From Alphaproteobacteria bacterium (GTDB taxonomy: Bacteria; Pseudomonadota; Alphaproteobacteria; Rhodobacterales; Rhodobacteraceae): a stretch of 64,000 nt of DNA. A model generated the notes under the pieces. The model was not told the origin of the DNA and made no database searches. It saw only the letters and a program-made list of their open reading frames with translations. Shown piece after piece: positions 16,124 through 63,329 of this stretch (positions are counted from its first letter, which is position 1; every line of letters starts with the position of its first letter). Location: assembly GCA_030427405.1 (NCBI GenBank), contig JAUHXK010000008.1, forward strand, positions 181,645-245,644, read 5' to 3'. The translations under genes were made by a program, and so were the position numbers.

Positions 16124-16135
16124 CTTTGGTCGTAT
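16124..16135 (-). promoter_or_regulatory. Putative response-regulator box upstream of pqqA, shared with the NosR-like gene
   Basis: + strand CTTTGGTCGTAT; matches boxes at 57296, 58434 and 59094. Confidence 0.6.
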
Positions 16136-16254
16136 CCGACCGCGGGTCGGGATTGGTGGCCGCGATACCGCGCGCGGAAATGTGAACGGATTGCGCCGCG
16201 CGCTAGGACTTTCGTCGAATGTTGCTTGGCACTTGCGCTTTATAGTCTCCGTCC

Positions 16255-18333
16255 ATGCGCGCATTTCTTGTGATGATCACGGTTCTTGTCGTCCGCGTTC
16301 TGGTCAGCCCGGGCGCATCGGCTGATCCCTTGCCGCGTGAACAGTTGGAACCCTATGTTCGCGCGCCTTTTTCCCTGGGCGAGCGCCTGAGTGACAATGG
16401 CGTCTACGCGCTGCTGAACTCGGGCGGGAGCGAGGCCGGATACGTCTTTGAAACCGAACCGCTTGCCCCGCTTCCGGGGTTTTCCGGGGCACCGATCAAC
16501 ATGCTGGTGGTTCTGGACCTCGAGGGTCGGTTCATGGATGTCCAACTGATCGCGCATAACGAGCCGATCTTTGTGTCCGGGCTGGGCGAGGCGCCGTTTT
16601 ACAAGTTTTTCGAACAATATGGCGGTTTGTCGATATCCGATTCCATTGTGGTGGGAACGCCCTATGGCGACGGCGCATCAGGGTCGTCGCTGGTCTATCT
16701 TGACGGCGTAACCAAGGCCACGGCCAGCGTGCGAATAGCCCATGAATCGGTGATGGGCGCGGCGCTCGCTGTCGCACGCGAAAAGATGCAGGGTCTGGCC
16801 ACTACTCCGCCTGCTTTTCCCGATCCCGATCACGAAGAGGCACTGACATGGGACGATCTGGCTTCGCAGGGCATTGCAACCCGCAAGACGGTAAGCAATG
16901 CGCAGGTCGATGCCCTGTTTTCCGGGACGCTCTGGGCAGAGGATGATCCCGAGGCAAATGAGTTTCCGGATGAGGCTTTCCTTGACCTGTGGATCGTCGA
17001 TCTGGGGCCAAAGTCAATTGCGCGGGCCGTTCTGGCCGAAGATACGTTCGATGAACTTCAGCGTTTTCTGGCAATCTCGGATAATGATGAGCCGATCCTG
17101 CTGATCGAATCTGCGCGTCACGGTTTGGTCAGCGACGACTTTGTCCGCAACACAGCGCCGGATTGGATTTCGGCGGAACAGGACGGGTTTCCCATTGCGT
17201 TGCGGGATGCCGACCTGTTTGTCGAACTGGTCCCCGACGCGCCCGAGGGGGCTGCCATGATCCTGCGGACGGATCGCAGGCTGGGGTTCGACCCGTCGCG
17301 CCCCTGGACGCTCAAGGTGCTTGCGGTGCGAGAGCACGGGATGTTCCAGCCCGAGATTGGCTCGGTAACGTTGGAAAGCCAGCATCAAACGCCGCCGCGC
17401 TTCTTTCTGCAACCGGTTCAGCATGTGCCTGTGCCGCCGTGGCGCGAGGCTTTGCGCAATCGTCAGGCGGACCTTGTCTGGCTTGGCGTTTTTCTGGTCG
17501 GTTTGGTCCCGGTGCTTGCATTTGGCATGAACAGGCTTGCAGGCGCGCGCTTATTCACACCCATTCGTCTGGGTGTTCTGGCGGTGGTCGTCGGTTTTGT
17601 CGGCTGGTGGGGGCAGGGGCAATTGTCGATCGTGACGGTTTTGGGCGTGATCCGCACCGCCACCGAAGGCGGCAGCTTTGCCTTTCTTGTGTATGACCCG
17701 TTTTCGCTGGCGGTCTGGGCCGTGGCGATCCTGGGCTTCGTGGCCTGGGGCCGGGGCCTGTTCTGTGGCTGGCTGTGCCCCTTTGGCGCCTTGCAGGAAT
17801 TTGCGCACCATCTGGGGCGCGCTCTGCGCATACCGCAAGTCGAGCCTTCGCCGAAATGGGACAGGCGGTTGAAATGGCTGAAATATATTGTATTGGCCGC
17901 GCTTGTGATCACCGTGTTCGTGGCGCCGGATCAGGTCGACAAGGCGGCCGAGGTCGAACCTTTCAAAACCGCGATTACCACCTATTTCCTGCGCGAATGG
18001 TACTATGTCGCCTATGCGGTTTTCTGGATCGTGGCGGCGATGGTCCTGTTCAAGGGCTTCTGCCGCTATCTGTGTCCTTTGGGCGCCTTCATGGCCATCG
18101 GAGGGTTGCTGCGCGGGCGCGACTGGATTGCACGACGGGCAGAATGCGGATCGCCCTGTCAACTCTGCCGCGTCAAATGCAAATATGGCGCCATCGAGCG
18201 CCAAGGGAAAATACGGTATGACGAGTGTTTTCAATGTCTGGATTGCGTCACCATCCACGATGATCCGCAGCAATGTGTCCCGCTGATCCTGTCCCGCCGC
18301 AAGGGCACCCGCGACGCGGTGGCGGCACAATGA
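16255..18333 (+). CDS. NosR/NirI-like membrane protein (periplasmic FMN-binding domain, TM helices, 4Fe-4S domain)
   Basis: GFSGAPINMLV, DGVTKAT flavinylation-like site, FCGWLCPFG and FCRYLCPLG, CGSPCQLCRVKC and CFQCLDC. Confidence 0.85.
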   Translation: MRAFLVMITVLVVRVLVSPGASADPLPREQLEPYVRAPFSLGERLSDNGVYALLNSGGSEAGYVFETEPLAPLPGFSGAPINMLVVLDLEGRFMDVQLIAHNEPIFVSGLGEAPFYKFFEQYGGLSISDSIVVGTPYGDGASGSSLVYLDGVTKATASVRIAHESVMGAALAVAREKMQGLATTPPAFPDPDHEEALTWDDLASQGIATRKTVSNAQVDALFSGTLWAEDDPEANEFPDEAFLDLWIVDLGPKSIARAVLAEDTFDELQRFLAISDNDEPILLIESARHGLVSDDFVRNTAPDWISAEQDGFPIALRDADLFVELVPDAPEGAAMILRTDRRLGFDPSRPWTLKVLAVREHGMFQPEIGSVTLESQHQTPPRFFLQPVQHVPVPPWREALRNRQADLVWLGVFLVGLVPVLAFGMNRLAGARLFTPIRLGVLAVVVGFVGWWGQGQLSIVTVLGVIRTATEGGSFAFLVYDPFSLAVWAVAILGFVAWGRGLFCGWLCPFGALQEFAHHLGRALRIPQVEPSPKWDRRLKWLKYIVLAALVITVFVAPDQVDKAAEVEPFKTAITTYFLREWYYVAYAVFWIVAAMVLFKGFCRYLCPLGAFMAIGGLLRGRDWIARRAECGSPCQLCRVKCKYGAIERQGKIRYDECFQCLDCVTIHDDPQQCVPLILSRRKGTRDAVAAQ

Positions 18334-19220
18334 TTACCCGGCGGCGGTTTCTGGCCATATCTGCCGCGAGCCTGGCCAGCCCCGCACGGGCGACACCCTT
18401 TCGATGGCGGGGACACGCCTTGGGGGCCGAGGTCAGCCTGACGCTGGATGCAGACATTTCCCAGGCGCGCACCGTGATGACGCAGGTCAGGAACGCTTTG
18501 GCCGAATGTGAAAACCTGTTCAGCCTCTACCGGCCTCACTCCGCTTTGTCCCGGTTGAACCGGGATGGGTTTGTCGCGGCGCCGGACGCCCGGTTTTATC
18601 GCCTCTTGCGTCACTGTGATCATATGCATGCCGTGACCGGGGGGCGGTTCGATCCTACGGTTCACACCCTTTGGACGGCACATGCCCGGGGGCAGGATAC
18701 CGCAGCCGCCCGGATGGCGGTCGGCTGGTCCCGTGTTGGCCTGGACCGGGGCCGTATCTCACTTGGCAAGGGGCAGGGGCTGACGCTCAACGGAATTGCC
18801 CAAGGCTTTGCAACGGACTGGGTTGCGGGCCTCCTGCACGAGGCCGGGCTGAAGAACATACTGGTGAATATCGGCGAGTTTCACGCCGGTGGCAGATACT
18901 GGACACTCGGCATTTCCGACCCTGAACGTGGGCTTATTGCCACGCGAAAATTAAAGGACCGGGCCGTCGCAACATCCAGCCCCGGCGCGATGCTGCTGGC
19001 CGATGGCCAGTCGCATATCGTGAACACGATCGGCACTCGAAACCCGGTCTGGTCGACTGTCAGCGTCGAGGCGACCGACGCGACCACAGCCGACGCACTT
19101 TCCACCGCATTTTGCCACGCAACACCAAATGAGATCGCGGCAATGCTCAAACGCACACCCGGCAATCCTGTCGCGATTTGTGTTCCAACCAAGGGTGCGA
19201 TCCAAACTATTTTCGGCTAA
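18330..19220 (+). CDS. apbE: FAD:protein FMN transferase (ApbE/NosX family), Tat-exported
   Basis: MITRRRFL Tat signal; FDPTV, LNGIAQG, LVNIGE, AVATS and ADALSTA; ATGA overlap with the NosR-like gene. Confidence 0.88.
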   Translation: MITRRRFLAISAASLASPARATPFRWRGHALGAEVSLTLDADISQARTVMTQVRNALAECENLFSLYRPHSALSRLNRDGFVAAPDARFYRLLRHCDHMHAVTGGRFDPTVHTLWTAHARGQDTAAARMAVGWSRVGLDRGRISLGKGQGLTLNGIAQGFATDWVAGLLHEAGLKNILVNIGEFHAGGRYWTLGISDPERGLIATRKLKDRAVATSSPGAMLLADGQSHIVNTIGTRNPVWSTVSVEATDATTADALSTAFCHATPNEIAAMLKRTPGNPVAICVPTKGAIQTIFG

Positions 19221-19227
19221 GGAAAAA

Positions 19228-19251
19228 CCCCGGGGAATGTCTTCCCCGGGG
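19228..19251. terminator. Hairpin between convergent apbE and coxM-like genes
   Basis: CCCCGGGGAA-TGTC-TTCCCCGGGG, perfect 10-bp stem, preceded by an A-tract. Confidence 0.7.
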
Positions 19252-19278
19252 CTATTGGCTTTGGTCCGTCTTCCTTGT

Positions 19279-20070
19279 CTACAGGCTCGCCATTACGGCG
19301 CGTTTTGTCATGACGCTGACGAGATGTGCGCGGTATGCTTTGCTGCCATGCAGGTCGGCGATCATGTTTGCGGGGTTTATGCTGAGGCCGGTCAGGGCGT
19401 CGGGGCGGAATTCCTTGTTCAGGGCGGCCTCCGCCTCTGTCCAGCGGAACACGCCGTCTTCGCTGGCGCCGGTGACGGCCACACGTACGCCGTCGGCGAA
19501 CCGCGCCACGTAGACACCCACCAGTGCAAAGCGGGACGCGGGCTGCAGGAACTTCTGATAGCTCGCCGCCTGCGGCACCGGAAACCGGACCGAGGTGATG
19601 ATCTCGCCCTCTTCCAGCACGGTGGCGAACATGCCTTCGAAAAAGTCATCCGCCGCAACCTGCCGGGTATTGGTCACGATCGTGGCCCCCGAGCCCAGCA
19701 CACCCGCCGGATAGCAGGCCGCCGGATCATTGTTGGCCACCGACCCGCCAATGGTGCCGCGATTGCGCACCGCCGGGTCACCGATCTGACCGGCCAGCGC
19801 CGCCAGCGCCGGATACGATCCTGCCGCCTCGGCGGCCACGATGGCATGGGGCGTTGCCCCGCCGATGACCAGCGCCCCGTCATCCTCGACACAGACGCCC
19901 CGCATCTCGGCAATCCCGCTCAGCGACACCAGGACCGACGGCGCCGCCAGCCGCTGCTTCAGCGTCGGGATCAGGGTCTGCCCCCCACCCAGCGCCTGCG
20001 CATCTTCGGCCCCCAACGCAGCAACCGCATCGGCAATACTCGAGGGCTTTTCAAAATCGAAACTGTACAT
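19279..20070 (-). CDS. coxM: Xanthine dehydrogenase family FAD subunit (CoxM-like)
   Basis: LGGGQTLIP, IGDPAVRNRGTIGGS, NNDPAA and ASRFALVG. Confidence 0.85.
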   Translation of the reverse strand: MYSFDFEKPSSIADAVAALGAEDAQALGGGQTLIPTLKQRLAAPSVLVSLSGIAEMRGVCVEDDGALVIGGATPHAIVAAEAAGSYPALAALAGQIGDPAVRNRGTIGGSVANNDPAACYPAGVLGSGATIVTNTRQVAADDFFEGMFATVLEEGEIITSVRFPVPQAASYQKFLQPASRFALVGVYVARFADGVRVAVTGASEDGVFRWTEAEAALNKEFRPDALTGLSINPANMIADLHGSKAYRAHLVSVMTKRAVMASL

Positions 20071-20104
20071 TTCGTCTTCCTTTCCGAAAGGCGCGGATCC
20101 GCCC

Positions 20105-20150
20105 TTCATCTGGCTATAAATATCCCGGGGGTCTGGGGGCAGAGCCCCCA
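20105..20150 (+). repeat. 46-bp REP-like intergenic element, copy 1
   Basis: TTCATCTGGCTATAAATATCCCGGGGGTCTGGGGGCAGAGCCCCCA; 36/46 identical, ungapped, to the reverse complement of 27290-27335. Confidence 0.75.
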
Positions 20151-20164
20151 GCCGCACCAACCTC

Positions 20165-22525: not shown

Positions 22526-22606
22526 TGCTTGTTCTCCTCCCATAAACGGATGCCGCAAGGCACCCCCTGTCATCCCACGGGCGTCTTGCCTACGCCCGCA
22601 GCGGCA

Positions 22607-51151: not shown

Positions 51152-53380
51152 CTATGCGTCCGTGCTGACAAGGGCGCCGCCCCGACAATCCTGAAGGAAA
51201 GACATCAGCTTTTGCGTATCTATCGGCTTTCGGATCAACGTAAACCCGTTCAACGCGCAGGCCTTGTCCAAATCCTCGGACCGGTTGGCCGAGATGACGC
51301 AGGCCGGAACCGAACCGAACTCGGCCGTCAGGTTCTGAATTGCGTCCACACCGGAACGCGCATTGTCCAACTGGTAATCGGCAATGATCAGATCCGGCTG
51401 AATTTCGATTTCGCGCAACAGGCTGGCGGCCTGCTCTTCACCCGCACATTCGATGACATGGACGCCCCAGCTTTCCATCGTCATCGTAAGCGCGTTGCGC
51501 AAATCGCCATCGTTTTCAATCAGCAGGGCAATCGTGCTTTGCGCTATGGCCGCCCCCGAGGCGTTGCCCGCCTCCTTGCCGCCTTGCACAGCGGGCGCCG
51601 AGGGCATCAGCGGCACCGTTACCGAAAACGCGGTTCCCTGGCCTACGCGGGATTGCAACCGGATCGGGTGGTTCAGCAATCCGCATGCCCTTTCGACAAT
51701 CGCCAGACCCAGCCCCATGCCCTCTGCCGCGCTTGCATCCGAATGCAGGCGCTGAAACTCGTGAAACACGATTTCCTGCTGGTCTTCTGATATCCCAATC
51801 CCTGTATCGTGAACCTCGATGCTGACGGCTTTGCCGCGTCGGCGCACGCCCACAAGCACCCTGCCCGTTTCGGTATAGCGGATGGCATTTGACACCAGGT
51901 TCTGCAGAATTCTGCGCAAATAGCTGGCGTCGCTGCGCACCACGATGCTGGTCGGAACCAGGTGAAACTCCAGCCCCTTGGCCTGTGCAACGGGCCGGAA
52001 GGCATCCCCCAACTGGGTGAACAACTCGCCCAGCGGAACCGCGGATTCATGCACCGACGCGCGCCCCGAATCCAGTTTCGAGATATCCAGAAGTGCTTCG
52101 AGGATATGCTCGACACTGTTCAGCGCGCTTTCCGCCTTTTCCGAAACCGCCCTTGCATCCATTTCGTCCAACCCCCGGCCAAGGGCTGCGACATAAAGCT
52201 TGGCCGCCGACAGCGGTTGCAACAGGTCATGGCTGGCCGCAGCCACAAAGCGCGATTTAGAGGCATTCGCCCGCTCGGCGTCTTTGAGCGCGTCGGCAAG
52301 CTCTTCGGTGCGCGCCTCGACACGATGTTCCAAAAGTTCCTTGGCCTCGACCAGCGCCTTGGCCGATTTTGTCTCGTCGGTAATATCGGTAAACGAGATA
52401 ACGAAACCGCGGTCCGGCATCTCCTGCGCAAATACCGACAGAATTTTGGAACGCCCGCTATGTATCTGCAGGTTAAGCGGCGACCGCTCGGTACTGCTGT
52501 CGATCCAGGCCAGGAATTCGGCACTGGTCGCGCCGCCCTCGAACCGAATGTTCGAGCCCAGGCGTTTGAAAATTGAAGAAAATTGCGATCCCATGCGAAA
52601 CTCGGCCGTGGGAATGGCAAGCAGCTCGCTGGCCCGGTTGTTCCACCCCACCAGCCGCTGTTTCTTGTCAAAGATGCACACGCCCTGGTCGATATGTTCC
52701 AGCGTGGCCCGGATCAGCCGCGCCTGATCGTCAAGAAGCCTGTCCCTTTCTTGTCGCTCAATGCGCATGATATCCGAGACATCGGTCTGCAGGATGACGG
52801 TTCCGCCATCGGGGGTCCGATGTTCCGAGACCTGAATCCAGCGGTTGCCGGTCAGGCGGACATTAAAGACAACATGGTCATCCGCATGCCGCGCCATGCG
52901 CTGCGTGACCCAATCTTGCGCGGTTTCGTTCTCGGGCAACGACAGGTATTCCGACTGGCTGACAAGCGCGACATAGTCGAAAAACCGCAAGCCGGGCAGC
53001 AATTTGTCCTGAATATCGGGCATGTGCATGCCAAAACGGCTGTTGCACATGACCAGGTCCTCATCGAGGTTGAACAGGGCAAACCCTTCCCGAACCGTTT
53101 CAATCGCATTGGCCAGGTTGGACCGCGCCGCTTCGGTTTCCCGGTTCGCCTCGGCCAGACGGGCGTTGGAATCGTTGAGAAGATCAAGCGCGCGTTCCAG
53201 ATCATGGGTGCGCGCGCGCACCTCTTCCTCAAGCATCGCCGCGCGCTGAAACTGCGCATAGGCCGCACCCGTGGCGTCGGTCGATTCCTCGACCCGGCGC
53301 ATCAGCGCAGCCGCGATTTTCAGCAGCTTTTCGTTCTGACGTTCCAGCGGGTCATTCGGGTCGATCAGGGACTGATGCAT
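51152..53380 (-). CDS. PAS-domain hybrid sensor histidine kinase (NahK/ErcS-like)
   Basis: Two PAS-like segments, AAASHDLLQPL H-box, N/G boxes and a C-terminal receiver domain (IIADYQL). Confidence 0.9.
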   Translation of the reverse strand: MHQSLIDPNDPLERQNEKLLKIAAALMRRVEESTDATGAAYAQFQRAAMLEEEVRARTHDLERALDLLNDSNARLAEANRETEAARSNLANAIETVREGFALFNLDEDLVMCNSRFGMHMPDIQDKLLPGLRFFDYVALVSQSEYLSLPENETAQDWVTQRMARHADDHVVFNVRLTGNRWIQVSEHRTPDGGTVILQTDVSDIMRIERQERDRLLDDQARLIRATLEHIDQGVCIFDKKQRLVGWNNRASELLAIPTAEFRMGSQFSSIFKRLGSNIRFEGGATSAEFLAWIDSSTERSPLNLQIHSGRSKILSVFAQEMPDRGFVISFTDITDETKSAKALVEAKELLEHRVEARTEELADALKDAERANASKSRFVAAASHDLLQPLSAAKLYVAALGRGLDEMDARAVSEKAESALNSVEHILEALLDISKLDSGRASVHESAVPLGELFTQLGDAFRPVAQAKGLEFHLVPTSIVVRSDASYLRRILQNLVSNAIRYTETGRVLVGVRRRGKAVSIEVHDTGIGISEDQQEIVFHEFQRLHSDASAAEGMGLGLAIVERACGLLNHPIRLQSRVGQGTAFSVTVPLMPSAPAVQGGKEAGNASGAAIAQSTIALLIENDGDLRNALTMTMESWGVHVIECAGEEQAASLLREIEIQPDLIIADYQLDNARSGVDAIQNLTAEFGSVPACVISANRSEDLDKACALNGFTLIRKPIDTQKLMSFLQDCRGGALVSTDA

Positions 53381-53386
53381 ATCAGG

Positions 53387-54553
53387 TCATTTTGCCGGAG
53401 GATAAATGGCAACCCCCGTCAGGGTCTGGTTCACATGCAGCGAATTATACTGCTCTCCGTAGGTCGAGAACCCCACCACATGGTTCTTGGCCAGCACCTT
53501 GGACAACGCGCCGGTCATCTGTTTTTCCTGGGCTTCCAGCCGTCGCAGAAGACAGTCGCAACCCAAAATGGTGTCGGGCTGCATTTCGGCCGTCAGAACC
53601 GAGATTTCCTGTTCCAGATGCCGCACCATGTCCAGCGGTTCCGCCAACGTCAGGACCAGGCCTTCGTCGATTGCGGAAAAGAACACCAGGTCGCCATTGC
53701 CCGCGACCCGCTGGATCGCACGCACGTGATGCTGTCCGCCGATCTGGACAACGACCGGATGCGCGGCAAAGGTAAACGCGGTCAGTTGCTCGGGGTCTTT
53801 GCCCAGAATGCGCGCATATTCGCGCGCCGCTGGCTCTGCGTTGATTTCGCGCACGACCCGGCGCGCCGGGTCCGCATCCGTGACGACCATGCGCTGTGCG
53901 CTTGGCACCAGGTGGTCCGATTTGAACACCTTGATCGGGCAGTTTGTGCGCACCTGGGTCAGGATGGCTGCATTTTCAAGCGCCTTGCCTTCGTGCAGGA
54001 CAAAGGTATGCCCAAAGGCCGTTCCGTCCCCCGCTGATCCGCCAAACAGCGGAACCGGCCCCAGCCCGACCGCCAGTTCCGATGTCAGATTGTCCTCTTT
54101 GGTCGACAACCCGTCGATCATCAGAAAGGTGAATTCGTGATGCCAATCCGGTTGCGCCAACATCATGGCGTTTCGGTTCCGGATCATCTCATCAATGATG
54201 TGCTGCGCATTGAACCTGTCGAGATCGGGCACCAACACCACGCGCGTCTGGAAATGCGACTGCGGGAACCCGATGGCGACAATCTGATCTTCGCTATAGC
54301 CTTCGTCAGCCAGTTCGCCAGCCGTGGTACAGCCGACGACCTGCGTGGGTGCAAAGGCGGCTTCGGCCTCGGCGATAACCGCGGCGGCATCAGCGTTTGC
54401 GCTGACGAACAAAATGACAAGCGCCAGCTTGTCTTCGCCCAGCAACTGGACGATCTCTTTCACCGGTTCATCCGAGTCGTATCGGGCGAACGCGGTTTTT
54501 ACGATGCCTGGCGCTCGGGCGCAGGCTGATGCCCACCCGGCAGCTTGGTTCAT
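53387..54553 (-). CDS. FIST-domain sensor (NosP-like)
   Basis: VVGCTTAGE, IDGLS, LFGGSAGDG and GFSTYGEQ. Confidence 0.9.
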   Translation of the reverse strand: MNQAAGWASACARAPGIVKTAFARYDSDEPVKEIVQLLGEDKLALVILFVSANADAAAVIAEAEAAFAPTQVVGCTTAGELADEGYSEDQIVAIGFPQSHFQTRVVLVPDLDRFNAQHIIDEMIRNRNAMMLAQPDWHHEFTFLMIDGLSTKEDNLTSELAVGLGPVPLFGGSAGDGTAFGHTFVLHEGKALENAAILTQVRTNCPIKVFKSDHLVPSAQRMVVTDADPARRVVREINAEPAAREYARILGKDPEQLTAFTFAAHPVVVQIGGQHHVRAIQRVAGNGDLVFFSAIDEGLVLTLAEPLDMVRHLEQEISVLTAEMQPDTILGCDCLLRRLEAQEKQMTGALSKVLAKNHVVGFSTYGEQYNSLHVNQTLTGVAIYPPAK

Positions 54554-54598
54554 CGTGCCTCCTCCCTAAAAGCGCGACGATCTCAGAAACCTTGCAGA

Positions 54599-55282
54599 TT
54601 AGCCGTGCTCTTGCAAGACGCTGGCAAAGGACGCCTTCTTTGCGATCAGCACCGCCTGGGTGCGGCTTTGCACGCCCAGCTTGCGCATGATGGCCGTAAC
54701 ATGCGCCTTTACAGTGGTTTCCGCAATCGACAGGTCAAACGCGATCTGCTTGTTCAGCTTTCCTTCGCAGATCAGGTGCAAAATACGAGCTTGCTGATTG
54801 GTCAACGTGCCCAGTCGGCTGACGGCGTCGCTTTGTTCATCCGTATCATCGGCGTCCAGCAGAACGCATCCCTCGGGCAGGAATGTCCTGCCGTGGGTCA
54901 AAGCCTCGAACGCGGTGCGAAACACGTCCCTTTGGCTGTGTTTGGGAACATACCCGGATGCCCCCGCATGTATGACCTGGCTGATGACCCGGTTGTCCGA
55001 CAGTGACGACACCACGATCACCGGTGCGTCTGCCGCCGACTTGAGGCGCACCAACCCGTCCAGCCCATCCACATCTGGCAGGTTCAGGTCCAGCATGACC
55101 GCGTCAGGCTTTAACCCATTGGCAATCAGGCCAAGCGCAGCTTCAAGCCGATCTGCGGTATGCACCTCTCCGATTTGGGCGACCGACTGCAATGTCATGG
55201 ACAGCGCATCGCAAAACAGCGGGTGATCATCCACGATCAGAACGTTTTCGAAATCCACGTCGTCAACCTTGTTCGCAAGCAT
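54599..55282 (-). CDS. NarL/FixJ-family response regulator (ErbR/AgmR-like)
   Basis: VDDHPLF and LDLNLP receiver; LuxR HTH NKQIAFDLSIAETTVKAHV. Confidence 0.92.
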   Translation of the reverse strand: MLANKVDDVDFENVLIVDDHPLFCDALSMTLQSVAQIGEVHTADRLEAALGLIANGLKPDAVMLDLNLPDVDGLDGLVRLKSAADAPVIVVSSLSDNRVISQVIHAGASGYVPKHSQRDVFRTAFEALTHGRTFLPEGCVLLDADDTDEQSDAVSRLGTLTNQQARILHLICEGKLNKQIAFDLSIAETTVKAHVTAIMRKLGVQSRTQAVLIAKKASFASVLQEHG

Positions 55283-55374
55283 AGGTCCGGCCTTTGCAAT
55301 CCAATCGTACCGTTCCAGGAAAGCCTAGCAAGCCATCAGGGGCAGGCCAACTGTCGGAAAGTCGTATAACGACA

Positions 55375-55400
55375 AACGCGCCCGGCTATGCGGGCGCGTT
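55375..55400 (-). terminator. Intrinsic terminator after the PQQ dehydrogenase gene
   Basis: AACGCGCCCG-GCTATG-CGGGCGCGTT, perfect 10-bp inverted repeat. Confidence 0.7.
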
Positions 55401-55423
55401 CTGGGTTGGTATCAGCTTTAGGC

Positions 55424-57190
55424 TTAGTTGGCCGAGGCCAGTTCCTTGGGCAGTTTAAACGTCCACAAGGTGCCACCCTGGTTGAGATAGTTGACCTTCT
55501 TGGCCACCTCGCCGCCCCACAGCGGGACCGCGCCACCCCAGCCCGAGATGATCGAGACATATTGCTCGCCATCCTGTTCCCAGGTCACGGGCTGTCCGAC
55601 GATGCCCGAGCCGGTCTGGAACGACCACAGCTTTTCGCCGGTTTCGTCATCCAGCGCGATGAACTCGCCCTCTGGCGTGCCAAAGAACACCAGCCCACCG
55701 GCCGTGGTCATCACACCCGACCAAAGCGGAGCATCGTTCTTGAATTCCCACTTCCATTCGCCGGTATCGGGATCAATCGCCTTGAGCGATCCGATATGGT
55801 CTTCGTAGTTCGGCTTGATGGTAAAGCCAGCACCCAGATAGGCCGCACCTTTCTTATAGGTGATCGGCTCGTTCCAGATATCCATGCCCCATTCGTTGGT
55901 GGGAACATAGAAATTGCCGGTCCGCTGCGAGAACGCCATCGGCATCCAGTTCTTGCCACCCAGGAAGGACGGCGACGCAAACACGACCTCGCCCTTGTTT
56001 CCGTCAGCCGCAGCCGAGGGATTGCCCGGGCGGTTGCCCTCGACAAATATCGGACGGCCCGTGTCGTCGATGCCATCAGCCCATGTGATGTCCTTGACGA
56101 AGGGGTTGGCGGAAACAAACGCGCCATCTTCGCGATTGAGGACGTAGAAATAGCCGTTACGGTCCGCGGTGGCATAACGTTTGTTACCCTCGCGGTCGGT
56201 ATAGGCCACGACCTCGTTCACGCCGTCATAATCCCACCCTTCGCGGGGGGTCGTCTGGTAATGCCACTTGATATCGCCGGTTTTCGGGTCGATCCCGATG
56301 CGGCTGGCCGCATAGAGGTTGTCGCCTTTGTTGCCCTCGGTCGGCTCGCCCGCGTCGCGCAGCCACGAGTTCCAAGGCGCAGGGTTGCCCGCCCCAAAGA
56401 TCAGCGTGTCGGTATCGGCGTCATACGAGCCGCCCAGCCAGGTCGCGCCGCCGCCGGTTTTCCACATGTCACCGGGCCAGGTCGCGTTCAACTCGCCGGT
56501 CATGGTGCTTTCTTCGCCGTTCAGCGTGCCCATATGGCCTTCGATCACCGGACGGGTCCAGACAATGTCACCCGTATTGGCATCGCGCGCCTGAACCTCG
56601 CCAACAATCCCGAATTCACCGCCCGAATTGCCAGTGATGATCAGCCCATCGACGATCAGCGGTGCCGCAGTATAGGAATAGCCCGCCTTGTAGTCAGCGA
56701 TCTTGTCACGCCAGACCACGTCGCCCGTTTTCATGTCCAGCGCCACGATGCGCGCATCCAGCGTGCCAAAGAAAATCTTGTCGCCATAAATGGCCGCACC
56801 GCGGTTCACCACGTCACAGCACGGCAGGATCCCTTCGGGCAGGCGGGCGTCGTATTGCCAGACCTCCTTGCCGGTCGCCAGGTCGATTGCGTAAAGCCGC
56901 GAATAGGACCCGGTGATATACATCATCCCGTCATAAATCAGCGGCTGCGTTTCCTGGCCGCGCTGCTTTTCGCCCCCCAGGCTGAAAGCCCAGGCCGGCA
57001 GCAGGTTTTTCACGTTGTCTTTGTTGAGCGTCTCCAGCGGGCTATAACGCTGAAGGTGGCGGCCCATACCGTTTGTCACAACCTGGGTCGTGATCGTTTG
57101 GTCATTGGCCAGATCGTCCTCGGTAACTTCTGCGGAAGCGGTGCCTGCAACTAAAACGCTTGCGACCGCAGCCATGATAAACCGGCTCAT
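55424..57190 (-). CDS. pedH: PQQ-dependent alcohol dehydrogenase, type I, predicted lanthanide-dependent (PedH/ExaF-like)
   Basis: Signal peptide; [15 protein letters not shown] vicinal disulfide, SGGEFG and WDYDGVNE (56213-56236). Confidence 0.85.
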
Positions 57191-57295
57191 CGGTATCCTC
57201 CCTAGACTTTTGTCTTTCCTCCATGCCGAATCTCCGACACTTCGGGATTATTGGCGCGATCATTATTTCCAGACCGCCTTTGTCACGAAATTGCA

Positions 57296-57307
57296 CAATG
57301 GTCGTAG
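57296..57307 (-). promoter_or_regulatory. Putative response-regulator box upstream of the dehydrogenase gene
   Basis: + strand CAATGGTCGTAG. Confidence 0.6.
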
Positions 57308-57368
57308 GGGGAATTCGGCGCATCCGGCCTAGGCTCGACAGGGTTCAAATTCCCTGACCGAGGACACC

Positions 57369-57929
57369 ATGCAGCGCACATTCCGGATAGTGTTTCTGGC
57401 CCTTCTCGGCACTTGCACCGGGGCCTTGGCAGACCCGTTTTCGGGACAGAAAGAAATCACACTCAGGGCCGTAGACGGCACCGAGATCACCATAGGCCAC
57501 GTTACATTTCACGCCGATCCCGCAACCGGAACAGCCACCTATGACCTTGATTTGTCAAGGGATGTCTTTGCACAGCATTTCCTGTCGATGCGCCCGTTCC
57601 GATGCCTAGAGGGGCCGCGGCAACATTGGTGCCACCTGCCCTATCCCTATGACATCGACCGGCGGGTCTCTGACGATGAACTGACCGATCTGGAATACGA
57701 CCTGCTGTTTGTACACAAAGGCGCCACCGACTATGGGATCGACATGTGGAACGGGTTGTATTTCAAGCTGAGCGTCGAGGGCGACCAGCTTTCAGGACAC
57801 CTTTTCGAGGTTGATATGGGCCTGTTGGCAATCCCACCAGCACCGGGGACGCGCAGGCCGATTGGGCGGGCGGATATCCACGAAACCGACCCCGACGCCC
57901 ATTGGCTGCCGGAAATCATCATCCGCTGA
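57369..57929 (+). CDS. Secreted hypothetical protein divergent from the dehydrogenase gene
   Basis: Signal peptide (..GALA-D); GAGG upstream; C-x8-C pair; acidic segment SDDELTDLEYD. Confidence 0.8.
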   Translation: MQRTFRIVFLALLGTCTGALADPFSGQKEITLRAVDGTEITIGHVTFHADPATGTATYDLDLSRDVFAQHFLSMRPFRCLEGPRQHWCHLPYPYDIDRRVSDDELTDLEYDLLFVHKGATDYGIDMWNGLYFKLSVEGDQLSGHLFEVDMGLLAIPPAPGTRRPIGRADIHETDPDAHWLPEIIIR

Positions 57930-57947
57930 TCCGACCACCTCGGCGGG

Positions 57948-58343
57948 TTATTTGCCCGAGATACTTCCCAGATACGCCAGGATGAAATCCTGAACGGTGC
58001 GATCTTCGATGCCAACATGGCGCATCTTGGTTCCGGGCATGAAACCGTCGTTATCCTCCATCCAGGCGCGCAGGGCAGCCGGGGTCCAGACAATACCCGA
58101 GTTTTTCAAGGCTGAAGAATATTCATATCCAGGAACGGTCCCGGCCTGCCGCCCGACAATATTGTCCAGTTGCGGACCATAGCTGGGGTCTGTCGGGTCC
58201 GGCGCGTGACAGCGCCTGCATTCGGAAAAGAACAGTGTCTCGCCCGCGTCGACCTTGATCCTGTCATAAGTGGATTGCGCACTGGCCGGAACCGTCCCGA
58301 CCGTCAGAAATGCCATGCCTAATGCAAGTGCGACCTGTTTCAT
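57948..58343 (-). CDS. Class I cytochrome c (c2-like)
   Basis: Signal peptide, CRRCH, GPQL..IVGR.AG and PGTKM. Confidence 0.9.
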   Translation of the reverse strand: MKQVALALGMAFLTVGTVPASAQSTYDRIKVDAGETLFFSECRRCHAPDPTDPSYGPQLDNIVGRQAGTVPGYEYSSALKNSGIVWTPAALRAWMEDNDGFMPGTKMRHVGIEDRTVQDFILAYLGSISGK

Positions 58344-58395
58344 CTGAGCCTCCTTAGATTTGCCCAAGTGTACCTTGGGCGCAGGCGGCAAAAGC

Positions 58396-58409
58396 TTGAC
58401 GCAGGTCAA
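58396..58409. promoter_or_regulatory. FNR/CRP-family-type site
   Basis: TTGAC-GCAG-GTCAA with perfect arms, 53 nt upstream of the cytochrome c ATG. Confidence 0.55.
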
Positions 58410-58433
58410 TAAAACAGGGGCAAACCCATCATC

Positions 58434-58445
58434 CTTTAGTCGTAG
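58434..58445 (-). promoter_or_regulatory. Putative response-regulator box upstream of the cytochrome c gene
   Basis: + strand CTTTAGTCGTAG. Confidence 0.6.
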
Positions 58446-58488
58446 AATCGGGCAAATTCCGGTGATTCAGACACCCAAAGTGCGGCTT

Positions 58489-59037
58489 TCAGAACAATGG
58501 CGCGTATTTCCAGTTATCCGCATCCGGCGTCACTTCGTCCAAATCATACCCCGCGCCTTGCAGGCGTTTGGCAATCTTCAAACCGTTCCGGGCGGCCTCA
58601 TCGACATAGGCGCGACCCAGATCCTCGTTTCGCGCCACGCCGTGCCCCCGCATGAGGTCCAGCCCGTAATTGAACTTGCCAACCGGATCGCCAAGATCGG
58701 CGGCCCGCTTATCCCACCGGGCCGCAGCATCCGGGTTATAGTCACCGCCCAGAGCGTTGTTGTCCAGCTGGCTCATCCAAGTCATGGCGCCGGTATACCC
58801 GGCCTCGGCGCAGGCTTCGAACAAGGCGCGCGCCATTTCGTGCCTGCCGGACTTGGTGATGTAATACCCCGTGGCACAGGTCGGCATGTCGATCACACCG
58901 TTTTCGATATTGCTCAGGACGCGGCCAAACCCCGTGTCCTGAGGGTTCAGCGTACCGTGTTCATCTTCGACGGTTTGCGCCAGGGCCGCCATCGGCAAAT
59001 ACGCCCCAACAAGACAGGCAACAGCAATGCGAAACAT
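58489..59037 (-). CDS. Secreted Sel1/TPR-repeat protein
   Basis: Signal peptide; ALFEACAEAG, AARWDKRAADLG, FNYGLDLMRGHG and AYVDEAARNG; AGGAGG upstream. Confidence 0.8.
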   Translation of the reverse strand: MFRIAVACLVGAYLPMAALAQTVEDEHGTLNPQDTGFGRVLSNIENGVIDMPTCATGYYITKSGRHEMARALFEACAEAGYTGAMTWMSQLDNNALGGDYNPDAAARWDKRAADLGDPVGKFNYGLDLMRGHGVARNEDLGRAYVDEAARNGLKIAKRLQGAGYDLDEVTPDADNWKYAPLF

Positions 59038-59093
59038 GGGGGTCCTCCTGTTTTTGGGCAAAATACACCAGGTCTCCGTCGGTTTCACGCCTG

Positions 59094-59105
59094 CTATGGT
59101 CGTAG
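59094..59105 (-). promoter_or_regulatory. Putative response-regulator box upstream of the Sel1 gene
   Basis: + strand CTATGGTCGTAG. Confidence 0.6.
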
Positions 59106-59117
59106 AAAGGGTCACCT

Positions 59118-59903
59118 CTACTGACGCTTCATGCCTCGCGCCGGGTCATAACCCCACAAAGCGGCACCCGCAAAGACAAGCCCTGCCAGCATTGTCCAGA
59201 ACAAGGCCATCGCGTTGAACTGCCCGTAAAGGGCAAAGCGGATCAATTCGACCGCATGGGTGAACGGATTGATCGCGCAGATATCGCGCAGAAGCGCCGA
59301 ACTTTCAGCCATTTTCCAAAGCGGGTACAGCGCGGATGACAGGAAAAACATCGGGAAGATGACAAAGTTCATCACGCCGGCGAAATTCTCAAGCTGACGA
59401 ATGGCGGACGACAGCGCAAGGCCAAGCGCCCCGAGCATCAGGCCGCTGACCAGCAGCGCAGGCAGAACCAGCACATAGCCCTGCCAGGGCATGTCGATAC
59501 CATAAAGTGCGGCAACCGCCAGAAACGTATACACTTGCAGAACAGAAATCGCGGTGCTGGCGAACAGCCTGCAAAACAGCAGCCACCACCGCGGCAGCGG
59601 GCTGGTCAGCAACAGGCGCATCGACCCCATCTCACGGTCATAAACCAAGCTAAGAGAGCTTTGCATGCCGTTGAAAAGAATGATCATTCCGCACAGGCCG
59701 GGAACAATGTAAATCTCGTAGGTGATATAGGTCTGATATGGCGGCGTAATCGACAGACCCAGCGCGGCGCGAAACCCTGCGGCGAATACCACCAGCCAGA
59801 CCAGCGGGCGGATCAGCGCCGCAATGAACCGGCTGCGCTGGCGGACAAAGCGCAGCCCCTCGCGAATGGTGATGGCCTGCAATGCGACCAGTGCGGGCGT
59901 CAT
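59118..59903 (-). CDS. ABC-2 type permease of the PQQ-dehydrogenase-associated system (PedC-like)
   Basis: YIVPGLCGM, DREMGSMR and FFLSSALYPLW. Confidence 0.88.
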   Translation of the reverse strand: MTPALVALQAITIREGLRFVRQRSRFIAALIRPLVWLVVFAAGFRAALGLSITPPYQTYITYEIYIVPGLCGMIILFNGMQSSLSLVYDREMGSMRLLLTSPLPRWWLLFCRLFASTAISVLQVYTFLAVAALYGIDMPWQGYVLVLPALLVSGLMLGALGLALSSAIRQLENFAGVMNFVIFPMFFLSSALYPLWKMAESSALLRDICAINPFTHAVELIRFALYGQFNAMALFWTMLAGLVFAGAALWGYDPARGMKRQ

Positions 59904-60619
59904 GCGGTTTCACCGGTCATGGTCAGAAACACATCCTGCAGCGGCTGGCCTGCGGTCAGTGCGCTGCATTGCGCCTGTTTCAAAAGCCTGCCGCGATGCA
60001 GGACGGCGACTTGGTCGTCCGGGGCGATTTCATCCGTCAGATGGGTGGCCCACAAAACCGTCATGCCGTCCTGCCGGGACAGGTCGTGGACATGGTGCGT
60101 AATCGCCTTGCGCGATGCGGCGTCCAGCCCCACCGTGGGTTCATCCAACAACAGGACCGAGGGGGCGTGGATCAGGCAGCGCGCGATTTCCAGCCGCCTG
60201 CGATGCCCCCCGTTCAGGTCCCGCGCCCGCTCTGCCGCGCGCTCCGCCATGTCCAGCCGTTCCAGCGCGGCCGTGATCCTGTCCTGCGCCAACCGGCCCG
60301 ACAGACCGTGCAGGGCTGCGAAATAGGACAGGTTGCGCTGAACGCTCAGGTCCAGATCCAGAGTGGGCTGCTGAAACACCACACCGATCTGCGCAAGCGC
60401 CTTTCTGGGCGAGCGCGCCAGGTTGTGCCCGGCGATCTCGATCTCTCCTTCAGAGGTCGTGAACAGCCGCGTCATCAGCGAAAACAGGGTGGACTTACCT
60501 GCCCCGTTCGGGCCCAGCAAAGCGCAAAACGCACCCTGCGGGACGTGAAAGCTCACATCATCCAGGGCGCGTTTCGAGCCGTAGCTATAGCTGACGTTGC
60601 GGACTGCAAGCCCGGTCAC
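59900..60619 (-). CDS. ABC ATP-binding protein (PedB-like)
   Basis: GPNGAGKS, LNGGHRRR, LLDEP and ATH; GTG start. Confidence 0.92.
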   Translation of the reverse strand: MTGLAVRNVSYSYGSKRALDDVSFHVPQGAFCALLGPNGAGKSTLFSLMTRLFTTSEGEIEIAGHNLARSPRKALAQIGVVFQQPTLDLDLSVQRNLSYFAALHGLSGRLAQDRITAALERLDMAERAAERARDLNGGHRRRLEIARCLIHAPSVLLLDEPTVGLDAASRKAITHHVHDLSRQDGMTVLWATHLTDEIAPDDQVAVLHRGRLLKQAQCSALTAGQPLQDVFLTMTGETA

Positions 60620-61071
60620 TTGATGGTAATCTCCAATCTCTGCGTTTCCCCGGTGCTGCCGGGAACCTTCAGATAATAGCTGCCGGGCTTGATCGCGACA
60701 AAGCCTATTTCCATTTCGCCCGCCTCGTCGAATTCGATGGAATCCAGACCCAGTGGCCGAACTTCCAACCCTTCGACGACAATCTCGTCAATCCAGATGG
60801 CGCGGAAAAACTCGGGCCCGACTATGGCAAGCTCCTGACTGCCGTCACCCTGGATCTCGAACTCGTAATAGGTTCCTGATTTCAGCTCCCAGGGCGCGTC
60901 TGACAAGGGCATGCCAGCAGACAGGATCACCGGCGGAAGGTCCTCTTTGTTGCCCGCAGACAATAGCCCGGCCAACCCGAACCCGTCGTCGTCATCGTCG
61001 TCATTGTCCGCCAGCGATGCCGCAGGGAGTGCAAGCGCCAGCATCGCGGCCACGGCCACCAGTTTTCTCAT
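60616..61071 (-). CDS. Secreted protein with N-terminal poly-Asp tract and a possible cupredoxin-like beta domain
   Basis: Signal peptide then DNDDDDDDG; ELKSGTYYEFEI and FVAIKPGSYYL; AAGGAG upstream. Confidence 0.8.
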   Translation of the reverse strand: MRKLVAVAAMLALALPAASLADNDDDDDDGFGLAGLLSAGNKEDLPPVILSAGMPLSDAPWELKSGTYYEFEIQGDGSQELAIVGPEFFRAIWIDEIVVEGLEVRPLGLDSIEFDEAGEMEIGFVAIKPGSYYLKVPGSTGETQRLEITIK

Positions 61072-61092
61072 GATCAAATCTCCTTGATAAGT

Positions 61093-62055
61093 TCAGTCCG
61101 TCGGTCGGAAGGCAGCGCCCCAGGGGAACCGCCCGACCTTTATGGTCTTGATTGGCTCGCGTGCGGCGACATCAATCACCGTCACGTCGCCCGATACGCC
61201 GTTGGTCGTAAACAACAGCGATTTGTCCGAATTGAAATCCATGTGCCAGACACGCCGACCGACAAGGATGTAATCCTCGACCTCATAGGTTTCGGCATCC
61301 ACGGCGGCGACGTGGTTCGACGGGCCCAAGGCAACAAATGCCGTCTTGTCCCCGTCAGACAGTTCAAACCCCACGGGCTGAACCCGGTCAGGGTGCACGC
61401 CTTCGACCTCGAACGATATCTTTGCCTTTTCGGTCTGTGTTTCCACGTCGAACACGGTGATGGTGCCGCCGATCTCGGAACTCACCCACAATTCGGTTCC
61501 GTCCTTCACGAATTCTGCATGACGGGGCCGGGAATCGACCAGTGTGTTGGCAAACAGCTCTTGGGATTCGGTGTCTATCCAGTGGGCCATGTTGGTGGTT
61601 TCGGATGTGGTGATCGCAATTTTCCCATCCGGGGAAACGGCCATGCCCTCTGGTTCGATCCCGACATCGATCTGCGCGATGACCTGACGGGATTGGGTGT
61701 CCACCACAGTCGTGATCGCATCGTCTTCGTTGGCGATGTAAAGATGCCGGTCATTGGGGTGCAGGACGAATTGTTCGGGGTCTTCGCCCGAGGGAAGATC
61801 GTGCAGGATTTTGCCGGTTTCCGGGTCCATGACCTGAACCGCGTCGCTATCGGACGCGCAGATATACAGAACGGAATAATCCTTGGAAAAGGTGATCCCG
61901 CGCGGTCGTTCGCCCGTGTCATATGTCTTGATGACCTCAAGCGTTTCGATGTCGATAACGCTGACCGTGTCGTCCTTTTCATTCGATATCCATATCTCAT
62001 CAGCCGCTGCGGTCGTACAAAAGAACCCAAGCGCGAGTGTCGCGATTTTCCTCAT
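61093..62055 (-). CDS. YVTN-family beta-propeller associated with PQQ-dehydrogenase systems
   Basis: Repeats SNEKDDTVSVID, GERPRG, GEDPE, GIEPEG and GRFPWG. Confidence 0.88.
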   Translation of the reverse strand: MRKIATLALGFFCTTAAADEIWISNEKDDTVSVIDIETLEVIKTYDTGERPRGITFSKDYSVLYICASDSDAVQVMDPETGKILHDLPSGEDPEQFVLHPNDRHLYIANEDDAITTVVDTQSRQVIAQIDVGIEPEGMAVSPDGKIAITTSETTNMAHWIDTESQELFANTLVDSRPRHAEFVKDGTELWVSSEIGGTITVFDVETQTEKAKISFEVEGVHPDRVQPVGFELSDGDKTAFVALGPSNHVAAVDAETYEVEDYILVGRRVWHMDFNSDKSLLFTTNGVSGDVTVIDVAAREPIKTIKVGRFPWGAAFRPTD

Positions 62056-62060
62056 TACCT

Positions 62061-63227
62061 TTACTCCGTAAACGCAGTGCACAGGCTTTCGGCCTGATCG
62101 ACGCCAAGTGTATCCAGTTCTGTCCGTTCGTGCAGAAACCCTTCGATTGGCGCCATGGCGACAACCGCCCGATCCGTGACCAACGGGATCGGCTGGCGCA
62201 GTTGTCCGTTCCAGGGGCGGAAATTCATTGCCCGCCCTTTGAACCCCGCCAATTCGAATTCGGCAGACAGAAGATAGGATCGCAGAACCGCAGGATCGTC
62301 AGAATTTGTGCGGGTTACCGCCTCACCCAGGGCGCGCATCCCCGCCCAGGCGGCATAATCCCGCGGCAGCATCCCCCGGCCTGCGTGATCGGCGAACCGG
62401 TTCTGCATCTGAACCGCGCCCCATTGTTCGATCACCGGCGACCAGGTGACAGGTTGCAGGCCCTCAGTCCCTGCAACCGGACGCGGCTGCCAGGTGTTGT
62501 AGGCAATATAGCGGCCGAAATCGTCCAGCGCATCGGCGACCAGCAACACGTCGTAATCACCGAATTCCTGCGTGAACAAAGGCACTTCCTGCGCTGCGTT
62601 GCGCCGCATATCCGCGTCGAAAACCCAAGTCTTTTCGCCCTGCAAGCTCAGGCGGAACTTTGCGACAGACGTCCTGAGCGCATCGGCAAAGGCCCGGTCG
62701 CCGGGGTGATCGCCGGCCACCAGCACCAGGTCATCCCAGCGCCGGCGCACCAGAAACTGAACCAGCGCGTCGCCGCGCATCAGGTCGGATGGCAGCGTGT
62801 GCAACAGGTTCGCCCGGCAATGATCCTGCCGCAGGGCAATATCAGGCGCCGAGGCATTGAAAAGGACCGCGCCCTGCGCTTCGGGCAGGTCAGCCACGGC
62901 AAGCTGGGCCGCCGCCGGAGCATCCAGGATCAAAAATGGGCTTTCGGCCAGAACCTTGCGCGCGGCGGCGGTGAAATCACCATCTTCAGGAACGGTTTCA
63001 ACCGTCAGACTATAAGCATGACCCAGGAATTTGGCCGTGGTCAGGTTATCCGCCAACCCAAGGGCGGCCCCAGCCACTCCCAAGTCATCGGGAATTGGGT
63101 CAAGGTTCGAAAGAACCGGCGGACGGGCGACCTGCAACTGCAGATAGGTAACGGGGATCGCAACCTCTGCCAGGGCAGACATAGGCAACGCCAGAACCGC
63201 AAGCACGATACGGAAAATTCGGTTCAT
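62061..63227 (-). CDS. ABC substrate-binding protein, branched-chain-amino-acid fold (PedA/LutA-like)
   Basis: Signal peptide; DNLTTAKFLG, LQGEKTW, GAVQMQNRF and FRPWNGQLRQPI. Confidence 0.85.
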   Translation of the reverse strand: MNRIFRIVLAVLALPMSALAEVAIPVTYLQLQVARPPVLSNLDPIPDDLGVAGAALGLADNLTTAKFLGHAYSLTVETVPEDGDFTAAARKVLAESPFLILDAPAAAQLAVADLPEAQGAVLFNASAPDIALRQDHCRANLLHTLPSDLMRGDALVQFLVRRRWDDLVLVAGDHPGDRAFADALRTSVAKFRLSLQGEKTWVFDADMRRNAAQEVPLFTQEFGDYDVLLVADALDDFGRYIAYNTWQPRPVAGTEGLQPVTWSPVIEQWGAVQMQNRFADHAGRGMLPRDYAAWAGMRALGEAVTRTNSDDPAVLRSYLLSAEFELAGFKGRAMNFRPWNGQLRQPIPLVTDRAVVAMAPIEGFLHERTELDTLGVDQAESLCTAFTE

Positions 63228-63284
63228 CTGCTGGTCGTCCTCCTCAGGGGGCATTTAAGAACGGCGCCAAGCTGCGATGAAATC

Positions 63285-63329
63285 CGACCTTAGTCGCAAC
63301 TAGCGGCCCATGTTCAACCAAGGTCGAAT
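63285..63329. promoter_or_regulatory. Two degenerate, more palindromic versions of the regulator box in the SBP/pedF divergent gap
   Basis: CGAC-CTTA-GTCG (63285-63296) and TTCAAC-CAAG-GTCGAA (63313-63328). Confidence 0.45.

Follow-up and report, generated by a model that had tools for sequence, protein, structure and literature searches.

How the genes for pyrroloquinoline quinone (PQQ)-dependent alcohol oxidation are switched on together is the question raised by a 64,000 nucleotide (nt) stretch of a Rhodobacteraceae genome, in the following called the window (contig C18, positions 181645-245644, in a genome of 3.62 Mb and 20 contigs). Many marine Rhodobacteraceae oxidise alcohols with PQQ- and lanthanide-dependent enzymes, and no account of the switching-on of this process was found for the group. 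An earlier note on the window had proposed that a 12-bp box links pqqA, the PQQ dehydrogenase, a cytochrome c and a Sel1-like gene across 40 kb, and that the response regulator encoded at 54599-55282 binds this box and coordinates cofactor synthesis, enzyme, electron acceptors and transport. All computational tests agree with one regulon for pqqA, the PQQ dehydrogenase, the cytochromes and the transporter, with this regulator as its probable controller. The box is interpreted here as part of a 16-bp operator of the PQQ alcohol-oxidation regulon, which is likely to be bound and activated by the adjacent AgmR/PedR1/ErbR-like regulator.

Exact matches to the 12-mer CWWTRGTCGTAK were found at all four positions given for it (16124, 57296, 58434 and 59094), each on the plus strand, compared to 0.02 matches expected from shuffles, a value which is inflated since the consensus was drawn from the same four sites. 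As described before, all four boxes are intergenic, share one orientation and lie upstream of minus-strand starts, and in the orientation of the respective gene they read MTACGACYAWWG. From the gene-proximal end of the box to the ATG, the distance amounts to 66 nt for pqqA, 105 nt for the PQQ dehydrogenase, 90 nt for cytochrome c and 56 nt for the 'Sel1' gene. The core GTCGTA by itself showed no enrichment in the window (16 found, 11.3 expected).

Over the whole genome the 12-mer occurs seven times, four times of which in the window. The three copies outside the window all fall within crude coding open reading frames (ORFs) and were rejected as further sites, being probably due to chance. The shorter 9-mer TRGTCGTAK showed 43 copies, 35 of them coding and 8 intergenic, and the latter include the boxes at 16124, 57296 and 58434 as well as a tRNA-like stretch present in three identical copies. 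At 59094, the 'Sel1' box was counted as coding solely because the longest-ORF gene call overruns the true ATG. A comparison of intergenic with coding copies had been named as a check of the box; elsewhere than at these promoters, its frequency is at chance level. Furthermore, a matrix derived from the orthologues of other genomes alone placed the four boxes of the window on ranks 1-4 among 7.2 million positions of their own genome, with the site of the PQQ dehydrogenase as the top score of the genome-wide scan. Together with the conservation in orthologues, this ranking subjected the consensus, which had been derived after the fact, to two independent tests, and both were passed.

For the analysis of conservation, one genome per species was sampled, resulting in 80 orthologous loci from Rhodobacteraceae and close relatives with a dehydrogenase identity of 82-94%. 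In line with the earlier proposal, the motif is kept at the same promoters in about 80 genomes. Of the 81 loci (window included), 74 have TACGAC in the 260 nt that precede the PQQ dehydrogenase, nearly always at -105 to -130, and the alignment of these promoters showed 1.2-2.1 bits over positions 0-11 and 13-17, compared to less than 0.3 bits in most positions of the flanks. The divergence of the flanks around the box argues against simple inheritance. On the sense strand, TACGACY was present upstream of the PQQ dehydrogenase in 71 of 80 cases, of cytochrome c in 29 of 33, of the gene for the 182-aa 'Sel1' protein in 28 of 55 and of the response regulator in 8 of 44, while the five internal operon genes used as controls gave 0-2 matches each. 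The strict 12-mer was found less broadly, at the PQQ dehydrogenase in 18/80, at cytochrome c in 25/33 and at 'Sel1' in 7/55.

A pqqB gene was found in 18 of the 30 genomes searched, and TACGACCAAAG is located at -76 to -82 of pqqA in 7/7 genomes with the same pqqA type; genomes with a more distant pqqA comprise CGACCAAAGTCTA-type variants at the matching place. In the gap between pedA1 and pedF, two fuller inverted repeats were observed in most of the 22 readable loci, for example CGACCAAGGTCTTA and TATTGGACTTTGGTTG. The regulator promoter reads TACGACYTTT in the nearest relatives and, as judged by eye, TAAGAC-CTTT-TGACAA followed by GTGACn in many of the remaining orthologues. Two side observations concern the pqq genes. 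No pqqB match was obtained in 12 of 30 genomes with this PQQ dehydrogenase cluster (loci L081-L099; genomes G011-G028), and these may depend on external PQQ. Several genomes contain a second paralogue of the regulator (41-46% identity) within about 10 kb of pqq, and there the pqqA promoter shows the CGACCAAAGTCTA variant followed by CTTAGAA-N-ATAAGA.

Conservation extends beyond 12 bp, over a unit that consists of TACGAC (positions 0-5), C-A-W-W, G10, a variable stretch and finally A15 and T16. It has the form of an imperfect inverted repeat, TACGAC-N4-GTCGTA-like, whose left half is invariant and of whose right part G10, A15 and T16 are kept; fuller palindromes were found for the pedA1 and pedF sites and in many orthologues. 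As read from these alignments, the 12-bp box is the strong, promoter-distal half of a 16-bp imperfect dyad with a weak proximal half. The original 12-mer consensus, over-fitted at both of its ends, takes in only the strong half, spacer and first base of the 16-bp site. The idea of a GAC-N4-GTC core, as bound by NarL-family regulators, was right.

The geometry of the promoters was deduced from conserved blocks at fixed distances. A -10 hexamer at +39 to +44, counted from the first T of the site, is conserved in the promoter classes of the PQQ dehydrogenase, pqqA and the regulator, and lies near +39 to +45 in the 'Sel1' class; in the anchored alignments of the PQQ dehydrogenase promoters, aATa.T stands out at these positions (+39 to +44) as another conserved block. 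In many genomes there is a second site on the opposite strand for a divergent gene encoding a 186-aa protein, and six of eight loci show TTGACA/TTGnCn immediately after it, at +16 to +21. In the promoters of the 'Sel1' gene and of the regulator, the site is followed by GTGAnn. Since the site abuts the -35 and a TAnnnT -10 follows at 39-44, it is predicted to be located at about -51 to -36 with its centre near -43.5. The -35 hexamers of these promoters are weak. Based on predicted transcription starts, we infer a class II-type activator layout.

Two other readings of the conserved block were rejected. GGTCGTACGACC, a 12-bp palindrome present in many orthologues, could be taken for a dimer site, which would need a 6-bp half-site spacing that is unusual for GerE dimers. 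Because the site on the opposite strand is followed by TTGACA/TTGnCn in 6/8 loci, the palindrome is better read as two opposed 16-bp sites sharing TA. An RNA element gave no Rfam match at E up to 1 within 54500-64000, and the conserved block is also found upstream of the predicted transcription start.

Seven conserved promoters of the window carry the site: those of pqqABCDE, the PQQ dehydrogenase, cytochrome c, the 'Sel1-like' gene, pedF, pedA1 and the regulator operon. With the exception of pedF, all of these sites are on the minus strand. The pqqA site TACGACCAAAGCAGCA (16119..16134) has its first T 77 nt before the ATG of pqqA (16057) and a predicted -10, TAGCTT, at 16090-16095. For the PQQ dehydrogenase, TACGACCATTGTGCAA (57291..57306) is located 116 nt before the ATG (57190), with AATAAT at 57262-57267 as predicted -10. 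The cytochrome c site TACGACTAAAGGATGA (58429..58444) lies 101 nt before the ATG (58343), and TACACT (58367-58372) is the -10 candidate. Upstream of the 'Sel1-like' gene (ATG 59037), TACGACCATAGCAGGC (59089..59104) is followed by the -35-like GTGAAA and then by the predicted -10 TATTTT (59060-59065). Weaker versions of the box had been reported before the response regulator (55356) and as two CGAC-N4-GTCG-like palindromes in the pedA1/pedF gap, and all of them are present. The first is the candidate autoregulatory site TACGACTTTCCGACAG (55351..55366) before the ATG of the response regulator at 55282, with a predicted -10 TAGGCT at 55322-55327; the palindromes are the pedA1 site TGCGACTAAGGTCGGA (63283..63298) and, on the plus strand, the pedF site TTCAACCAAGGTCGAA (63313..63328), 72 nt before the ATG (63385) and with the -10 candidate TATGAC at 63352-63357. 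The 12-mer holds for pqqA, the PQQ dehydrogenase, cytochrome c and 'Sel1', while the transporter and pedF use fuller palindromic variants.

Further motifs were observed close to these sites or resembling them. Between the cytochrome c site and the gene, about 30 nt downstream of the former, lies the palindrome TTGACGCAGGTCAA (58396..58409), which we take to be a site of an FNR/FixK-type factor from its likeness to the FNR consensus; a TTGAT-N4-ATCAA-like palindrome was seen by eye in most of the cytochrome c orthologue promoters displayed. This suggests that the cytochrome c promoter is co-controlled by an oxygen- or nitric oxide-responsive factor, much like promoters with FNR plus NarL. Directly upstream of the pqqA site, CCGACCCGCGGTCGG (16136-16150) forms a dyad whose 6-bp arms are separated by 3 bp, and in relatives a CGAC-N4-GTCG dyad is found 21-25 bp upstream of the main pqqA-side site. 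A role as a second site is conceivable for CCGACCCGCGGTCGG, as is one for the NosR-like gene in divergent orientation (16255-18333). A candidate site TACGACCAACGGCGTA (61195..61210, minus strand), which overlaps the end of the pedA2 coding sequence and precedes the gene of a 153-aa acidic protein by 133 nt, reached a matrix score of 19.2 and was rejected as not conserved, with only 3/41 orthologues. Outside the window, about 131 kb upstream, the near-perfect full site TACGACTTTGGTCTTA (C18:50475-50490) lies between two divergent genes, one DUF3305-like and the other encoding a 4Fe-4S protein. A Tat-signal molybdoenzyme adjoins these genes (best match formate dehydrogenase alpha, 476 bits, below the cut-off), and the gene or genes at TACGACTTTGGTCTTA may be an additional member of the regulon.

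The most likely binder of the site, as judged from gene context and co-occurrence, is the adjacent regulator 54599-55282 (minus strand). It combines a receiver domain with a LuxR/GerE helix-turn-helix (HTH) domain (Pfam Response_reg 4.4e-21, GerE 4.9e-19), and its best NCBIfam model is ErdR with 156 bits, of which it is the only match in the genome. Downstream on the same strand follow a NosP-like FIST protein (53387-54553; 403 bits, cut-off 450) and a hybrid histidine kinase of the NahK/ErcS' family (51152-53380; 428 and 372 bits, both below the cut-offs). An orthologue of the regulator with 56-84% identity was found in 29/29 of the box-positive genomes checked, and two genomes with the PQQ dehydrogenase and without the box contain only a 42% paralogue (Hoeflea L016/G011; L134/G106). 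A tblastn search gave two full-length NarL-type regulators in the genome of the window; the other one, on contig C9, is MctR-like and has a different recognition helix. Four Rhodobacteraceae genomes (L161-L164) comprise the module of regulator, NosP and NahK without this dehydrogenase. One of them (L163) shows the strong site CCTACGACCAAGGTTCCATA just past the kinase gene, and another (L161) a variant site before the regulator gene.

Altogether, the following mechanism is proposed. A dimer of the AgmR/PedR1/ErbR-like regulator of the NarL/LuxR family would occupy the 16-bp operator. Given a site at about -51 to -36 that abuts the -35, it would help weak sigma-70 promoters in the manner of a class II-type activator. 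Induction would then be joint for cofactor synthesis, the enzyme, its electron acceptors, the transporter and the regulator itself, the latter by positive autoregulation through the site in its own promoter, and the NosP/NahK-like module would provide a phosphorylation input. Several observations weigh against this interpretation. The regulator remains below the ErdR cut-off of 390 bits, and NCBIfam offers no AgmR model. The module of regulator, NosP and NahK is retained in 4/15 genomes of the family without this PQQ dehydrogenase, so that the regulator is not strictly tied to it, and about 35/80 loci showed no regulator match in their flanks, the gene being located at another place of the genomes sampled. 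Conservation is poor in the half-site next to the promoter, which makes dimer binding something that we infer, and GTGACA (57281-57286), the -35 given by the promoter scan for the PQQ dehydrogenase, was rejected as not conserved in orthologues. Moreover, binomial P values for the enrichment of TACGACY ignore the relatedness of the genomes.

Some of these points lead to the rival that deserves most attention, although it is improbable: the operator is real and conserved, and it is bound by the MctR-like regulator of contig C9 or by a factor of another family, the adjacent regulator acting elsewhere or indirectly. The assignment of site to regulator was made from sequence, the flanks of about 35/80 loci and the four genomes with the module and without the dehydrogenase would fit another binder, and the second, FNR-type site of the cytochrome c promoter implies several factors at these promoters. 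However, the site is also present in the regulator's own promoter, box and regulator orthologue occur together in 29/29 genomes while the two genomes without the box have no close orthologue, and the recognition helix of the MctR-like protein differs. In addition, CrbR/ErdR, as the nearest family with a characterised operator, binds a similar site. That the regulator binds here as a repressor or anti-activator is very unlikely: proteins of the NarL family can repress, but the site lies upstream of the -35 and abuts it instead of covering the -10 or the start, weak -35 hexamers are typical of activator-dependent promoters, and AgmR/PedR1 and CrbR are activators in Pseudomonas (PMC12997753, PMC13390443, PMC5715377).

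Even less probable is a reading of the box as a core promoter element of an alternative sigma factor, for example a -35 of the extracytoplasmic function (ECF) type. The fixed distance to a conserved -10-like hexamer in several promoters and the poor -35 regions could be explained in this way. With TACGAC 33 nt before the -10 hexamer, though, the distance is too long for a -35 element, a canonical TTGACA directly follows the 16-bp site in the divergent promoters, and the pedA1/pedF sites as well as related sites in another proteobacterial class (see below) show the dyad symmetry of an operator bound by a dimer. Finally, the four matches could be a chance product of a post-hoc consensus, as this was derived from the sites themselves and GTCGTA alone is not enriched in the window. 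The probability of this is negligible, given that the box is kept at the orthologous promoters of about 80 genomes whereas each of the five control classes gave 0-2 matches, and given ranks 1-4 in the independent matrix.

The genes concerned can be described as follows. By its domain content, the locus is a ped-type cluster, comprising a PQQ alcohol dehydrogenase (TIGR03075), proteins matching TIGR03863 and TIGR03866, ABC-2 and ABC_tran domains and a CxxCH cytochrome. The dehydrogenase of the methanol/ethanol family (55424-57190, minus strand) shows a DYD motif at residue 320, which is typical of lanthanide-dependent enzymes, and an adjacent Cys-Cys pair at residue 124. It is followed by a plus-strand gene for the 186-aa protein with no assigned function (57369-57929) and, on the minus strand, by cytochrome c (57948-58343) and the 182-aa 'Sel1-like' protein (58489-59037), for which the match to the Sel1 repeat is weak (E 0.0044). 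The transporter genes pedA1-pedA2-(153-aa protein)-pedB-pedC (59118..63254, minus strand) comprise an ABC-2 permease (59118-59903), an ABC ATPase with the ABC_tran domain (59900-60619), the 153-aa acidic protein (60616-61077), the beta-propeller PedA2 (61093-62082; TIGR03866) and the substrate-binding protein PedA1 (62061-63254; TIGR03863). A c550-type cytochrome c of the PedF type begins at 63385 on the plus strand. The pqqABCDE operon is located at 12945-16057 on the minus strand, with pqqA identified by reading the sequence.

Two observations concern the annotation of the pedA1/pedF region. For pedA1, the longest ORF starts at 63254, where it overlaps the predicted -10. The true start is probably the second methionine at 63227 (Met10), where a typical signal peptide begins and which is preceded by the ribosome-binding site GAGGAGGA. 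A long minus-strand ORF (63244-63999) is the shadow of the plus-strand gene of the pedF-type cytochrome c with its CARCH haem motif, and tblastn matches of this ORF elsewhere stem from the conserved gene on the opposite strand.

A wider comparison extended to more distant loci. Upstream of PQQ dehydrogenases with at most 68% identity, the strict TACGACC is largely absent, with a single isolated match (L149). It was rejected as the box of these distant loci, which show a related but different half-site. In clusters from another class of the same phylum, arranged as pedF / pedA1-A2-B-C / regulator / kinase / NosP, the palindrome TAsTAC-CwwG-GTAsTA is found at fixed distances, for example as TACTACCTTGGTACTG and TAGTTCCTTGGTAGTA: 133-144 nt upstream of the PQQ dehydrogenase, 128-145 nt upstream of pedF, 99-107 nt upstream of pedA1 and about 200-230 nt upstream of the regulator gene. 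Twelve matches with at least 14/16 positions were obtained, all outside the annotated ped genes, ten of them 99-145 nt before a ped gene and two further away; with at least 13/16 positions there were 20 matches compared to 9.8 in shuffles. The degenerate 12-position consensus was not enriched in the distant loci at low thresholds and was discarded, as only at least 13-14/16 with the CWWG spacer stands out.

The regulator of the window shares 37-40% identity overall with those at the AgmR position of these clusters, while its HTH segment IAETTVKAHVtAImRKL is near-identical to theirs (shared IAETTVKAHV-AI-RKL). At such an identity, orthology rests mainly on synteny and the HTH segment, which is a further point against the proposed assignment. 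The form common to the sites of the window and of the other class is TA-NN-ACC-WW-GGT-NN-TA. Tentatively, and with slightly less than even chances in our estimate, this could be a general operator of AgmR/PedR1/ErbR-type regulators in Alpha- and Gammaproteobacteria, with TACGAC... as the Rhodobacteraceae and TAsTAC... as the Pseudomonas-like version. If so, the regulator would act directly at every ped promoter and at pqq, and it would have its recognition code in common with CrbR/ErdR, the regulator of acetate genes, so that cross-talk of the alcohol regulon with the acetate regulon would become possible. Apart from this, the 16-bp site enables the prediction of regulons from sequence and supplies parts for alcohol-responsive biosensors.

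Among known systems, DosR and NarL share with the window the family of GerE-type HTH dimers and the spacing of the GAC-N4-GTC core. The published DosR consensus is TTSGGGACTWWAGTCCCSAA, and the flanking bases, the regulons (hypoxia, nitrate respiration) and the sensor partners differ. EmaSR of Acinetobacter baumannii is a two-component system for ethanol and acetate which is said to match PedS1/PedR1; a shared upstream box, AAxCTTAxxxxTAxxxTT, was proposed for it in silico only (PMC10891947). In contrast to the site of the window, this box is AT-rich and not obviously the same motif.

Of the motifs characterised so far, the closest is ACTU; this imperfect inverted repeat is bound by the LuxR-family protein CrbR in P. 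fluorescens and other Gammaproteobacteria (Sepulveda & Lupas 2017, PMC5715377), and its published examples include TACGACTAAAGTCTAAA and TACTACCATCGTCGAAT. ACTU is located at -52 to -36, directly before an RpoD promoter, and is required for activation (PMC5715377). ErdR is the name used in P. putida and P. aeruginosa for the regulator of this CrbS/R-type system (PMC12997753), which in P. putida goes by MxtR/ErdR. Both sites are imperfect inverted repeats of the TACGAC-N4-GTCGTA form, the binder of ACTU is a LuxR-family response regulator, and TACGACTAAAGTCTAAA is identical to the cytochrome c box of the window over the first 11 bases. The position reported for ACTU compares to the predicted -51 to -36 in the window, with -35-like hexamers at +16 to +21, and ErdR is the best NCBIfam model of the window's regulator, although with 156 bits against the 390-bit cut-off. 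On the other hand, the promoter-proximal half is much more degenerate in the window, and ACTU belongs to the acetate-utilisation genes (acs, actP) and a kinase with an SLC5 domain. Control of such genes via CrbS/CrbR is not what was found in the window, where the targets are ped and pqq genes and the partners a NahK-like kinase and a NosP-like protein.

Another close system is the AgmR regulon of Pseudomonas, reportedly treated by Gliese et al. in 2004. Genetic work there shows AgmR to be an activator of both the ped core genes and the pqq operon, and agmR (pedR1/erbR) has pedS1 (nahK) and PP_2663 (nosP) as neighbours (PMC12997753). The same set of genes is concerned in both systems, namely a PQQ alcohol dehydrogenase, cytochrome c550, the ped transporter region and a distant pqq operon; in both, a LuxR-type regulator stands beside nosP-like and nahK/pedS1-like genes, and the same promoters of the syntenic clusters from the other class have the related palindrome. 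Differences were found in the gene order, with the regulator first in the window, in the identity of only 37-40% to the syntenic regulators, and in a second tier, since no PedS2/PedR2-like second two-component system is encoded in the window cluster. The Pseudomonas regulon is defined by genetics only, and no description of an AgmR/PedR1/ErbR operator was found in the accessible literature, which did not cover some older subscription papers. According to a paper of 2026, direct action of PedR1 on catabolic promoters is still argued (PMC13390443). The regulatory logic of the window matches the genetically known AgmR regulon and is not a new kind of mechanism; the operator at the ped promoters, pqqA and the regulator gene provides a testable DNA target for this question of direct control.

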